64,000 nt of DNA from a plasmid. This document shows positions 53,501 through 56,500 of the stretch, piece after piece. Every line of letters starts with the position of its first letter. Within the stretch, counting starts at the first letter, position 1. The stretch lies in sequence record NZ_CP067021.1; one strand, written 5' to 3'. Made by a program: the position numbers.

Positions 53501-56500
53501 TCAGGTGCACCTCTTCGCACAATCGCCGCTCGGAACGAATGCCATAGCAAGTAGCCGACGACCAGCATGCGCACCATCAACTCCGGGTCAATCGAGGGAC
53601 GCCCGATGGGGCTATAGAAATCTGCCAGGTAGGCACGTAGATCACTGAGATCCAAGCACTGGTCGATGCTGCGCAGGAGATGTTGGGCCGGGACGTGATC
53701 TTCCAGATTGAACGAGTAGAACAGGCGCTGCTGTCCTCCCGGTAACTGTCCCATCATGCTGTTCGCCCCCACGCTCGCTGACAAAGCAATTTTGCCAACG
53801 GCATGGGGAGGCCGCTACTTTTTCAACAGAATCGGCCGCACACAGCCATTCGGCTCAACAGAACCCTGCCTTTACCCCACCAAACTCCGGAAACTCGCCC
53901 GGTAGTCCGTCGGCTTGAGATGCACATGTTGGCTGAGGTCGCCGGGTAGCGTGAACAGGCGCGGACCGTCCCGAAACTGGAACACGCGATACAGATGGAA
54001 TTGATCGCCCGCCTCCTTGGAGAATTCGAGTTCGTTGTGGCTGACCAAGAAAGACGAGCCTACCCCGCCATTGGTGGTTTTCACCTCGATGAAGCGCTCA
54101 TGGGCGTCCTCTTCGAACGACAGGATGTCGAACCCCGCACCGTCTCCCTGGGTGTCGGACACCCAATCCAGCCGCTGAAAAAGCTCTGGGTGGCCGAGCT
54201 CGGTCAGGCGTTGCTGTTCGTAGCCAATCACCCACTGCTCCCCTGCCCGGCCCAGCTTGCGGTTGGCTTCATCGCGAGCGGCATAATCGAACTTTCGCGG
54301 TAGGCGTTGCCGTAGAGATGCCGGGGTACGCACAAGCACTTCACGGGCGGGTGGTTCTACCAAAGCCGCTCGGTAGGTTTTGTCACCCGGAAGTTTTACC
54401 TCCTCCAGGGCATCGACAAGAGCGCCGACCGTCTGCTGATGTTCCAGAACGTAGGCGTGTACGGATTTACGCAGCAGCAGTTGGCTGTTGCCGCGTGGCT
54501 TGTAGCCGTTGATATAGGGCAGGCCCAGGGCATCGAGTACGGCGCTAATGTTCTGGTGCTTGAGCTCGACTGAAGACTTGCTGCGACCGTTCAGCAGTTG
54601 GCGCAGTGCCTGGTTGTGCTCGGACTTGTTGTACGGCTCCCCAGCCGCCTCGGCACGCAGCATGTCGAAATAGTCTTCGACCGTGGCCAGGACCTCTTCT
54701 TCGGACCAGTCTTCGCCGATGCGAATGATGCGAAACCCGAGCCGCGTCAGCGCCGGAACGACGGTCGCCTCGCCACCGGAGAAGCTGTCAGCAGTGAGCG
54801 GGCCCTGCTCGGGAAATTGCTTGCCGAAGGCCACACCGGCGATGGCCTTGGAATCGCAATCGGTGCCGGTCTTCGGATCACGTACCAGGAAGTCGCGGGA
54901 CTTGCCGTAGCCGTGGCGCGCCAGGAATTTCGTGCGGCCCAGTTGCACGAACTCATCGATGGCAGCCTGCACGGCGGCGGGGCTTCGAAGCTGGGAGAGT
55001 TGAGACACAGGGTCCTTCCTTACTGTCATGGTGTGCCGGGAACCGCCGAGCCACGAGATTATGAGTAGCCCCTGAACAGAAACGTCACGATAAAAGCCGT
55101 GAACGCCACCAGGCCCATTAAATCCCTTGCGTATTTGCAGCCCGTGCTGTCCAAACCTGTACCAGGTCCGATCAACACGCTCCAACCATTGAGGTACGAA
55201 AACACCGCCTGACCGAACAAAAAATGCGTGATAGCCGCCGCAGCCATGACGCCGGAATCGTCAGACAGGCTGTAGCTGTTGACCATTGCCCTGTACGCCT
55301 GCATCTGAAATGGCTATTGCCCTGATGGGAGCCGGCTTTTCAGCCACCGACACCAGCGATGCCGTCAATATTCTTTACCCGATAACCATGACCGTACAAG
55401 CTAACAAGGCCTGGCAAGCCAGCGGACTTAAAAAGTCTTTTTTTCTACCATCCCACAAAAAAGTTCGTGGTGGAGAAAAGATAAGCTATGCAAGGCTTTA
55501 GGAGACGTGGTTTTTCAGGATGACGAAGAACGATTCGGCGCTAGGTGCAACATAGGTGCATCGCACGAGCGCTAGGAACGGCGAAAAAAGGCGGACGTGG
55601 CGAAATCGGTAGACGCAGCAGACTTTAAAATTGGAGTGCCCGCGGGGAAATCCGCGGAGTAGAACCGCTCAAAGTCGGGGAACGCTAACGGGCAATACCC
55701 TAAGCCAATCCCGAGCCAAGCCCCTTCGGGGGAAGGTGTAGAGACTGGACGGGCGGCGCCTAAAGCCTTCGGGCAATGGCGAAGGGACAGTCCAGACCAC
55801 GAACGTCATCAGACGGCGGCGAAAGTCGAGGTGGTACGAAAATCTGCTTCTCTGTGAGAGTACGGGTTCGAGTCCCGTCGTCCGCACCACAAAGCCAAAC
55901 ATCCCTGCGATGATCGACCTCTGGGCGTTTGGTCGTGAGCCCGCCACCCTCGCGCTACGCTTTGCGCAGGCGTCGAAGGCGATCAGGTGCGCCCATCGAT
56001 TCCGTCGAGCACCATCGCTGCGAGTTCATCGCTGGTGTGTGCACCACTATCGAGAACACGGGTTGTGCATGGAAGCCGTTCCCTTGCGGCCAAGCATCGG
56101 GCGACATTCGCTAATCGCCACTCTCGAATCTCCGCATTTCGATTCGGGTCAGGATGCATGGTCTGGTTCGCGATCCGGTGACGCAATAGGTCCTCGTTGA
56201 GCGTCAGAAAGATGTGCAGCAGCTGATCGTCGATCCGCCTTACCCCGTCGAGTATCTCAGTCAGATAGTCCGGGTGCACGAGCGTCATTGGGATGATGAT
56301 GTCCTGCGAGTAATTCCTTCGAATCTCCCTGACCGCCGCGATCGTAAGTCCCCTCCACAAGGGGAGATCCTGATAGTCTCCGCTCGCTGGCATGGGGACC
56401 GTTTCTTTCACCACGAACCCGATTTCCTCGGGGTCAAAGATCAGCGATTTGGAACGCCGATCGCGCAGCCGCTTAGCGAGCGTCGTCTTTCCGGCGCCGA

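Follow-up and report, generated by a model that had tools for sequence, protein, structure and literature searches.

What is a tRNA gene interrupted by an intron doing beside an aminoglycoside resistance gene? The question is raised by a 64,000-nucleotide (nt) stretch of the plasmid record NZ_CP067021.1, hereafter called the window, in which a tRNA-Leu(UAA) gene split by a 213-nt insert lies next to tmrB and the resistance gene aac(3)-IId. An original prediction, made from the sequence alone, had taken the insert for a group I intron and suggested that the gene could point to the source of the resistance segment. Our analysis indicates that the gene and its intron are intact, of alphaproteobacterial descent, carried as a passenger in a mosaic unit, and most likely the relic of an integrating element. 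We consider this reading, taken as a whole, to be about 85% probable. The gene is divided as follows.

55591-55625, plus strand: tRNA-Leu(UAA) exon 1, with the acceptor 5' strand, the D arm, the anticodon-stem 5' strand and C32 U33 U34
55626-55838, plus strand: group I intron of 213 nt, IC3-type (Leu.3Ug), without an open reading frame (ORF), supported by the Rfam model RF00028, a model of the paired regions P1 to P9 and a leave-one-out profile
55839-55889, plus strand: tRNA-Leu(UAA) exon 2, with A35 A36 A37 A38, the anticodon-stem 3' strand, the long variable arm, the T arm, the acceptor 3' strand, the discriminator A and CCA

Exon 1 reads GCGGACG TG GCGAAATCGGTAGACGC A GCAGA CTT, and exon 2 reads AAAA-TCTGC, the variable arm, ACGGG-TTCGAGT-CCCGT, CGTCCGC, A and an encoded CCA; the predicted ends of both halves were right to the base. 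When the exons are joined (GCAGACUU running directly into AAAAUCUGC), the program ARAGORN calls an 86-nt tRNA-Leu(taa), in agreement with the predicted identity, and the product has the features of a type II tRNA: a cloverleaf, a long variable arm, the 7-nt anticodon loop CUUAAAA, the anticodon UAA and the discriminator A73. The insert sits exactly between U34 and A35 (CUU/.../AAAA), as had been proposed, and 67 homologues have theirs at the same site. These homologues came from a scan of species-representative genomes with a degenerate intron-core pattern, GAGCCAAGC N4-34 GGTGTAGAGACTRGACGG, which returned at least 120 loci. Of these, 67 are tRNA-Leu(taa) genes split at U34/A35 by introns of 204-261 nt, and the remaining ones are mostly of the tRNA-Arg(CCU) and tRNA-Ile/Met(CAU) types. 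Loci are referred to below by our own numbers, with the prefix L. The window copy and the 67 homologues were aligned, and all structural statistics refer to these 68 sequences. Pairing in the acceptor, D, anticodon and T stems reaches 99.7-100%, and compensatory changes are numerous there; the variable arm, whose length varies, is misaligned.

The identification of the insert as a group I intron was upheld by the structural model and its covariation. It follows a U and ends in G55838, an invariant column of the alignment, and an explicit model with P1, P2, P3, P4, P5/5a, P6/6a, P7, P8/8a and P9/9a/9b could be laid over it. The parts of the intron are given one per line.

55622-55637, plus strand: P1, in which exon ACUU and intron UA pair with the internal guide UGGAGU; the extension pairs covary
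55638-55660, plus strand: P2 hairpin with a GAAA tetraloop (55647-55650); both-side changes in all 9 pairs
55665-55670, plus strand: 5' strand of P3, with its partner at 55751-55756; forms a pseudoknot with P7
55675-55737, plus strand: P4-P5-P5a-P6-P6a domain with a UUCG loop on P6a, from the model and covariation
55738-55756, plus strand: R element, consisting of the joining segment J6/7, the P7 5' strand, J7/3 and the P3 3' strand, from the model and covariation
55757-55781, plus strand: P8-P8a with a UUCG loop; pairing of 99.3% in P8, with both-side changes in 3 of its 4 pairs
55782-55793, plus strand: S element, consisting of J8/7 (AAGGGA) and the P7 3' strand (CAGUCC); C55792 pairs with G55743
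55796-55838, plus strand: P9 with the sub-hairpins P9a and P9b (GAAA, 55821-55824), followed by A-C-G to the terminal G55838; 92-99% paired with many both-side changes

Standard pairs fill 96.1% of the 4,295 cells of this model, as compared to 28-43% after a shift of the 3' partners by 1-3 columns. Changes on both sides were seen in 41 of the 65 model pairs, and none of 500 shuffles equalled the observed values. Every helix is 88-100% paired, the P3/P7 pseudoknot included, and covariation is found in all the core helices. At the splice site, U55625 forms a wobble pair with G55634 of the guide, and this pair is U-G in 68 of 68 sequences. P3 is paired in 99.8% of its cells and four of its six pairs change on both sides, for instance from C-G to U-A in 27 sequences; P4 is 100% paired, P5 shows a switch from C-G to G-C in 25 sequences, and P6a covaries. 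The predicted R and S elements were both located, with the letters GTAGAGACTGGACGG at 55738-55752 and AAGGGACAGTCC at 55782-55793. In the R element the 5' strand of P7, GAGACUG, carries the bulged A55742 and the guanosine-site G55743, and P7 is 100% paired. The pair G55747:C55788 covaries perfectly with A:U (10 versus 58 sequences), and on this ground an alternative register of P7, CUGGAC/GUCCAG, was dropped in favour of the Tetrahymena-like GACUG/CAGUC. The pair G55743:C55792, the bulged A55742 and the columns of J8/7 are invariant or nearly so. We placed the guanosine site according to the register of the Tetrahymena P7.

The periphery is of the IC3 kind by inspection rather than by a formal subgroup classifier, with GAAA loops on P2 and P9b and receptor-like motifs in P8 and P5; the CCUAAA...AAUGG flanks in P8, read by eye, resemble a tetraloop receptor. 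All four classical bacterial types of tRNA intron are labelled IC3 in the intron database (Williams 2020, bioRxiv 10.1101/2020.01.27.920355). Of the 150 columns with a conservation of at least 90% in the other 67 sequences, the window copy fits 149, and its sole deviation is also present in chromosomal copies. Where it differs from its two closest relatives, in a Bradyrhizobiaceae metagenome-assembled genome (MAG; L023) and a Novosphingobium MAG (L033), the positions are mostly unpaired or the pair is kept. The sequences of gene and intron are intact, and from this we infer catalytic activity. If a precursor is transcribed, the intron is expected, as a member of its family, to fold into P1-P9. 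An external guanosine held at G55743:C55792 of P7 would then attack after U55625, which is positioned by the U-G wobble with the guide. The terminal G55838 would next occupy the guanosine site, and the exons would be ligated to a type II tRNA with the anticodon UAA, the discriminator A73 and the encoded CCA. It is by analogy with introns of this type that the window intron is presumed to be self-splicing.

It can be asked why such a gene has escaped detection. In its default mode ARAGORN reports no tRNA anywhere in the 64-kb window, and Rfam gives no match in it at gathering thresholds. The intron mode of ARAGORN found the right gene ends, but it misplaced the intron and called a "tRNA-Stop(tta)"; this call was discarded and the boundaries were set by stem complementarity. 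With permissive filters applied to 55400-56100, RF00028 matches 55616-55808 from end to end (E=1e-07), so that the proposed check against this model came out positive in significance but with a score, 36.8 bits, below the gathering score of 50. The low score counts against the assignment, although a gathering score is a threshold for detection and not a structural criterion. The objection is further weakened because the seed of RF00028 holds no bacterial introns, and cut-offs of 18-20 bits have been used instead (Williams 2020, bioRxiv 10.1101/2020.01.27.920355). A leave-one-out profile built from the 67 other family members matches the window only at 55591-55886 (E=3.3e-78), and the corresponding intron-only profile only at 55629-55838 (E=2.5e-53). 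The misses by default ARAGORN and by Rfam at gathering thresholds are a problem of sensitivity, not an absence of the gene.

These empty default scans are what would speak for a chance resemblance, or for degraded tRNA halves flanking an unrelated insert. That explanation is contradicted by the covariation, both leave-one-out profiles, the RF00028 match, the tRNA called from the joined exons and the conservation of the alignment columns, and its probability is practically nil. It is nearly as improbable that the locus codes for a protein. An ORF of 92 amino acids does exist on the minus strand at 55669-55947, antisense through the intron and exon 2, and some records annotate a hypothetical protein, but it has no Pfam match, and the variation over the 68 homologues is compensatory in the RNA helices and accompanied by variable loop lengths, which fits an RNA and not a reading frame. 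The ORF is almost certainly spurious.

How a gene of this kind may travel is suggested by its relatives. In 12 of the 68 loci a fragment of another tRNA-Leu gene lies upstream of the split one, and it is always exon 1 and never exon 2. In loci where fragment and gene are about 1.45 kb apart, the gap holds a single gene on the same strand, which codes for a Phage_integrase protein of 416-446 amino acids with 50-61% identity between loci. A full integrase is present in L004, L043, L099, L117 and L135-L139 and in 80 metagenome loci, and seven further loci, a Bradyrhizobium plasmid among them, keep C-terminal remnants of it that adjoin the tRNA; the family has at least 6,900 homologues. The acceptor strands of the fragments are specific to the lineage: those from Acidobacteriota read GCCCGGA, and the alphaproteobacterial ones GCGGACG, GCCCACG or GGCCCCG. 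Against the 3' strand of the intact gene, the fragment's acceptor strand could form no more than 2-6 of the 7 pairs in 9 of the 12 loci; the intact gene pairs with itself at 7/7 and 5/5 in every one of the 12. Since the strands of fragment and gene are incompatible, the intron-bearing gene must have arrived whole, and the fragment is what remains of a resident gene. A model in which the element brings exon 1 and the intron, and forms a hybrid with the resident 3' half, was ruled out because the acceptor and anticodon-stem strands are mismatched in most loci.

A complete example was found on a gammaproteobacterial chromosome (L138), where an island of 9,559 bp is bounded by 13-nt direct repeats, GGACTTAAAATCC, at 9868 and 19427. 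From one end to the other it runs from the resident 5' half through the integrase, the intron-split tRNA-Leu(UAA) and the cargo (an IS3-family transposase, Fic and a Schlafen-like protein) to the resident 3' half, and when the flanking halves are rejoined they give a canonical intronless tRNA-Leu(UAA), called tRNA-Leu(taa). The surroundings of the elements are in general housekeeping genes 5' of the fragment, and TraG/VirD4, MobA, methyltransferases or defence genes 3' of the tRNA.

To have a sample free of the intron pattern, we took the 80 metagenome loci by their integrase alone. An intron-split tRNA-Leu, mostly UAA, begins 14-110 nt past the integrase stop codon in 32 of them; two of the split genes are CAA with C at -1, the Leu.3Cg type of Williams. 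Another 22 loci have an intronless tRNA-Leu(CAA) and 2 a tRNA-Ser, and the remainder have nothing adjacent or too little sequence. Of the 29 split loci with enough upstream sequence, 25 have a 5' half of matching anticodon at 76-146 nt upstream of the integrase, and the same holds for 18 of 20 intronless CAA loci. There are exceptions, namely four loci with an intronless tRNA-Leu(UAA) 0.6-2.3 kb downstream and one with the conventional order of tRNA followed by integrase. It appears that the tyrosine integrase of these elements would insert them into the anticodon loop of a resident tRNA-Leu gene without repairing that gene, and that the element would bring a complete replacement tRNA-Leu, the UAA-type copy next to the integrase being intron-split. 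We found no description of such disruption and replacement involving a tRNA or an intron in the searchable literature.

Several loci showed further arrangements around this integrase family. On the plasmid of Bradyrhizobium sp. ISRA443 (L002, NZ_CP094524.1, 6224-6792) the "hypothetical protein" 5' of the split tRNA is a C-terminal remnant of the integrase; the split tRNA is unannotated, and trbI-trbF conjugation genes follow 3' of it on what is a conjugative plasmid. In L136 (11345-11637), L180 and L201 a member of this integrase family has a split tRNA-Leu(CAA) gene with C at -1 as its neighbour, and a CAA 5' fragment to match lies upstream; splicing of the Leu.3Cg type has been questioned (Williams 2020, bioRxiv 10.1101/2020.01.27.920355). 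L136 also has a truncated second copy 1.2 kb downstream (12800-12884), with the 3' end of an intron followed by exon 2. This exon 2 was considered as the right attachment site (attR) and rejected: the 3' end of another intron stands before it, which makes it a tandem relic. In L113 a tRNA fragment from the T loop to the 3' end, GGTTCGAGTCCCACCGCCCGCACCA, lies at about 5691-5730, which is 900 nt downstream of the intact split gene. Exon 1 of that gene is better matched by the acceptor strand of the fragment than by the gene's own 3' strand, which suggests a second integration, at the 3' end and of the conventional kind.

The position of the intron may itself have a function in these elements. 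It is conceivable that the intron makes disruption and replacement possible: with the recombined core interrupted, the element's own gene would be no target as DNA, splicing would restore the tRNA, and introns would spread by integrases and not by homing endonucleases. The intron lies inside the 13-nt core of the anticodon stem-loop that the integrase recombines (GGACTT^AAAATCC), and the core is interrupted in all 23 split replacement copies that were scored. The intronless replacement copies all differ from the target in the anticodon stem-loop, in 17 of 18 CAA cases within a 10-nt core. Position 32 toggles between C and U in both directions, so that among the CAA elements (18 loci, L141-L214) 11 have CTCAAAA in the target and TTCAAAA in the copy, and 2 have them the other way round; in the UAA exceptions the copy has U32, or the 30:40 pair is swapped. 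Furthermore, the intron-bearing genes share the acceptor type GCGGRCG across Alphaproteobacteria, Gammaproteobacteria and Acidobacteriota, and the broken resident halves are those of their lineages. Some divergence between alleles of different lineages is to be expected in any case, and for this reason we put the idea forward as a tentative one, with the odds rather against it.

Does the window carry such an element? Three features upstream of the tRNA gene bear on this.

55410-55433, plus strand: 5' half of an intronless tRNA-Leu(UAA), eroded, in which a stretch resembling a D arm is followed by GCGGA CTTAAAA with an uninterrupted anticodon loop
55424-55444, plus strand: hairpin GGACTT-AAAA-AGTC followed by a T-run, from the sequence, located where the tRNA likeness of the fragment breaks off; conserved in L023 and L033
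55445-55590, plus strand: leader that separates the fragment from the tRNA; it has homologues in L023 and L033 and includes the conserved block CTAGGTGCAACATAGGTGCA (55541-55560)

The fragment reads CCTGGCAAGCCAGCGGACTTAAAA, with an eroded D arm and the sequence GCGGACTTAAAA. At the same place L023 has an intact fragment, GCGGACGTGGCGGAACTGGTAGACGCAAGGGACTTAAAA, after which the likeness to tRNA ends. We read 55410-55433 as the remains of a resident tRNA gene broken by an integrating element, that is, a junction of the left attachment-site (attL) type. By analogy with the elements described above, the fragment together with the split tRNA is most likely the decayed left end of one of them. The window holds at most a relic and not a member element, since a tyrosine integrase is absent upstream of the tRNA; the integrase was presumably lost in this lineage. 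The block of fragment, leader and gene is also found in the Bradyrhizobiaceae MAG and the Novosphingobium MAG, and truncated in L014, and its presence in several lineages implies that the block itself moved after the original integration. The decayed end may have lain in alphaproteobacterial accessory DNA and have accompanied tmrB-aac(3)-IId in its transfer to plasmids.

The MAG contig L014 has an arrangement of its own. A complete intron-split tRNA-Leu(UAA) on the plus strand (5517-5823) is followed on the minus strand by a convergent, truncated copy of the window type (6120-6285), with exon 1 and 136 nt of intron and 90% identity to the window, and this copy is preceded by its own intronless 5' fragment (about 6460-6495, minus strand). 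These may be nested or tandem element relics, or possibly an assembly artefact.

A number of observations weigh against our overall reading, besides the Rfam score already given. The view of the window as an element relic rests on the architecture that it has in common with L023 and L033, and on analogy. A tblastn search found no integrase or remnant of one in the window, the 150-nt leader included, and none in L023 either. Within the 64-kb window there is no second repeat of the attachment-site type, no second tRNA end and no resident 3' half, and no close integrase-bearing relative of the window clade was found, the best being 80% identical. No sigma-70 consensus promoter or intrinsic terminator was found in 55200-56100. 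Finally, tmrB-aac(3) has relatives without an adjacent tRNA-Leu, to which the homology halts at the tmrB stop codon.

The prediction had placed the gene in an aac(3)-II/tmrB resistance segment on an Acinetobacter mobile region, and this was correct: tmrB and aac(3)-IId adjoin the tRNA on large Acinetobacter plasmids, where the unit is flanked by ISAba14. The neighbouring features, among them an insertion sequence (IS), are as follows.

52221-52245 and 53814-53838, minus strand: 25-nt perfect inverted repeats of ISCfr1 (IS1182 family)
53872-55007, minus strand: DUF3883/NOV_C gene, from Pfam
55890-55984, no strand: spacer of about 95 nt at the junction of the tRNA block and the resistance block, without homology to the relatives of either
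55983-56525, minus strand: tmrB-like ATPase, from Pfam AAA_33 and the RefSeq annotation
56538-57422, minus strand: aac(3)-IId, from Pfam Antibiotic_NAT and the RefSeq annotation

The two resistance-block genes are thus convergent with the tRNA gene. Each block has relatives of its own. Among the matches listed, the closest to the tRNA block is the chromosome of the Bradyrhizobiaceae MAG, with 95% identity over all 299 nt, followed by the Novosphingobium MAG (93%), an uncultured proteobacterium (L087, 90%) and Rhodovulum steppense (L005, 89%); a copy with 71.5% identity occurs on Bradyrhizobium plasmids. Over the longer stretch 55424-55891 the identity to L023 (3552-4021) is 84%, and the homology ends at the CCA end of the tRNA (55889-55891); in L023 an arsenic-resistance cluster lies 3' of it. 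Outside plasmids the nearest relatives of TmrB are likewise alphaproteobacterial: two metagenome contigs have it at 88% and 85% identity, Sinorhizobium meliloti at 81% and Paracoccus at 70%. In the two metagenome contigs aac(3) stands directly before tmrB, in the same order as in the window and with overlapping or adjacent genes, and the chromosomal neighbourhood (an ECF sigma factor, EF-hand proteins and BA14K) is syntenic with S. meliloti, which has tmrB (81% at the amino acid level) and lacks aac(3). At the DNA level 55985-57452 is 84-86% identical to Sinorhizobium-like chromosomal pairs (L123-L125, 7072-8541; L129, 5239-6677; L126-L128).

The third block, ISCfr1 with the DUF3883 gene (52300-55007), is 89.6% identical over 2.7 kb to a contig of Stutzerimonas kunmingensis (L131, 6002-8690), which has the IS at the corresponding place. 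The DUF3883 gene (ScoMcrA_N and NOV_C) of Pseudomonas and Stutzerimonas follows a DEAD/UvrD helicase of about 1,700 amino acids in a pair resembling a defence island (L133); the plasmid unit retains only the DUF3883 gene, and the homology halts at its start codon (55007). Two stretches, 55008-55423 (416 nt) and 55890-55984 (95 nt), gave no match to the relatives of the neighbouring blocks. The former carries ORFs at 55059-55304 (minus strand) and 55286-55501 (plus strand), which are hypothetical proteins in RefSeq without a Pfam match. Because the tRNA, tmrB-aac(3) and ISCfr1-DUF3883 blocks have different closest relatives, the aac(3)-IId unit is, on sequence grounds, a mosaic of blocks of different origins. 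The comparisons point to soil or rhizosphere Alphaproteobacteria, Rhizobiaceae-like, as the source pool of aac(3)-II and tmrB. The tRNA supports an alphaproteobacterial pool, but aac(3)-IId cannot be assigned to a donor from it alone. As the pointer to a donor lineage that had been suggested, it was useful as regards the phylogenetic direction (the relatives at 95% and 93% are alphaproteobacterial) and fell short as regards a donor, since the closest relatives of the tRNA and resistance blocks differ and no donor was identified. In the searchable literature we found no stated origin for aac(3)-II/tmrB.

Some repeats lie around the unit. Direct copies of ISAba14 (IS3-family, named from the annotation of matching plasmids) at 50000-51256 and 57470-59992 bracket it, and the right-hand copy exceeds the other by about 1.24 kb (repeat spacings 7,495 versus 8,736), so something has been inserted there. 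A perfect 19-nt tandem direct repeat, ACTATACCTATCGAGATAT, with a spacing of 25 lies at 57426-57469, with the start codon of aac(3)-IId on one side of it and the inverted repeat of ISAba14 (at 57470) on the other, and could be related to the promoter region or to a target site. Outside the resistance unit, at 60139-60234, there are four copies of a 16-nt A/T-rich sequence, CTTAAAACCATCTTAA, three of them at 11-nt spacing, which have an iteron-like appearance.

The unit is not confined to this plasmid. At an identity of at least 99% its 299 nt are present in 1,271 PLSDB plasmids from Escherichia, Klebsiella, Salmonella, Acinetobacter, Enterobacter and others, and they always adjoin tmrB and aac(3)-IId, so the suggested search for other aac(3)-II contexts with the same tRNA was amply rewarded. 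The surrounding 701-nt stretch is found in 619-693 complete E. coli genome records (roughly 620 of 5,426 genomes). On the large Acinetobacter plasmid the unit has a G+C content of 55-63% in a background of 40.9%. RefSeq has no RNA feature at the tRNA unit, and in some records a hypothetical protein is placed there. The aac(3)-IIe lineage matches the window only from about 55973 onward; it has no tRNA unit, and an IS3-family element starts about 10 nt past tmrB. It was considered as a test of whether the tRNA is ancestral to both lineages, and it is uninformative as the IS3-family element cuts at that very place. Our literature searches found no paper that mentions a tRNA or an intron beside tmrB. 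To our knowledge, group I introns other than those of phages are not regarded as part of the E. coli or Klebsiella gene pool.

Whether the tRNA gene tells us anything about the resistance genes depends on how the two came together. They may have been joined late, by IS-mediated or illegitimate recombination, in which case the tRNA would be an accidental neighbour and uninformative on the source of the resistance. We hold this to be quite possible, at somewhat less than even odds. The closest relatives do differ, being Bradyrhizobiaceae and Novosphingobium MAGs for one block, Sinorhizobium-like loci without a tRNA for another and Stutzerimonas for the third, and homology breaks at 55007, about 55424, 55891 and 55985. 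On the other hand, the tRNA and resistance blocks are both alphaproteobacterial, no IS end or repeat is present at the 55890-55984 junction, and the relatives have variable cargo 3' of the tRNA (ars in L023, trb in L002, defence genes in L138), just where a captured resistance pair would be expected. A related doubt concerns the present hosts. The gene could be a silent relic, intact only through its recent spread, neither transcribed nor spliced in Enterobacteriaceae and Acinetobacter and contributing nothing. The hosts have a tRNA-Leu(UAA) of their own, for instance leuZ in E. coli. The consensus promoter is missing from 55200-56100, the aac(3)-IIe lineage manages without the tRNA unit, and the approximately 1,270 plasmid copies are essentially identical, which leaves no time for selection. 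Yet nothing in the sequence of gene or intron is broken, and transcription may come by read-through from upstream or from a non-consensus promoter in the leader, for which the conserved block at 55541-55560 is a possible candidate; the terminator scan did not call the hairpin at 55424-55444, whose stem is too weak. Introns of this type, moreover, require only Mg2+ and guanosine (PMC13168695, PMC7717549). We would put the silent state, too, a little below an even chance. If the gene is transcribed, the mature product would likely be a tRNA-Leu(UAA) redundant with the host isoacceptor.

An intact, most likely element-derived, split tRNA-Leu(UAA) of alphaproteobacterial descent can be compared with several known systems. 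With the classical tRNA-Leu(UAA) intron it shares the host tRNA, the CUU/intron/AAAA site, the U at -1, the terminal G and a compact, ORF-less core of the IC3 type. It differs in that the window copy is found on enterobacterial and Acinetobacter resistance plasmids and many of its relatives are linked to a tyrosine integrase and a broken resident tRNA. The nearest relatives are alphaproteobacterial and not cyanobacterial, in a retrieved set that held no cyanobacterial sequences. The prediction had named cyanobacterial and plastid introns for this position and had implied something exotic; the classical site holds, but such introns are widespread in Alphaproteobacteria, Acidobacteriota and other phyla, and 5,292 split tRNA genes have been reported (Williams 2020, bioRxiv 10.1101/2020.01.27.920355). 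The group I intron in tRNA-Ile(CAU) of Azoarcus sp. BH72, a structural model system of 205 nt, self-splices at 37 C (PMC13168695). The window intron is similar in size (213 as compared to 205 nt), in lying in a tRNA anticodon loop and in having GAAA tetraloops on P2 and P9, and different in its host tRNA and loop position. Our core pattern also retrieved CAU-type introns in Rhodocyclales and other betaproteobacteria, and the window intron may resemble the Azoarcus sequence itself.

The BbgpI intron in the tRNA-Arg(CCU) of Bartonella shows self-splicing in vitro and also undergoes splicing in vivo; its tRNA gene had been unannotated, and tRNAscan-SE finds such a gene only after the intron is removed (PMC7717549). 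The alphaproteobacterial tRNA-Arg(CCU) introns (Agrobacterium and Bartonella) resemble the window intron in belonging to the broad family retrieved by the core pattern, in their sporadic, alphaproteobacterial occurrence and in the unannotated tRNA gene, but the tRNA and loop position are different and no plasmid or resistance context has been reported for them. The integrating elements have their counterpart in "gene replacement" elements such as the tmRNA-encoding island in the Rhodobacter tmRNA gene and the hrpB islands (Mageeney et al. 2020, PMC7192596). In both cases a resident gene is broken without being restored and the element carries its own homologue, as in L138. In the present elements, however, the target is the anticodon loop of tRNA-Leu and the replacement is usually split by a group I intron inside the 13-nt core, and the window itself has only a relic. 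The intron class and its wide bacterial distribution are known; the location on resistance plasmids and the link to an element appear to be unreported.

The finding adds clues to the provenance of aac(3)-II/tmrB, a link to elements that disrupt and replace tRNA-Leu genes, and a gap in annotation: a structured RNA gene with a probable ribozyme lies in one of the commonest aminoglycoside-resistance units. The acceptor and variable-arm signature of the plasmid tRNA, GCGGACG...UUCUCUGUGAGAGU, differs from that of the host leuZ, and the exon junction together with the acceptor stem makes a simple RNA marker, GCAGACTTAAAATCTGC when spliced and GCAGACTTTAAAATTGGAG when unspliced, by which the expression of imported plasmid tRNA genes can be tested. 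If the tentative role of the intron in sparing the replacement copy is true, it could also explain why ORF-less tRNA introns persist and how they cross phyla.

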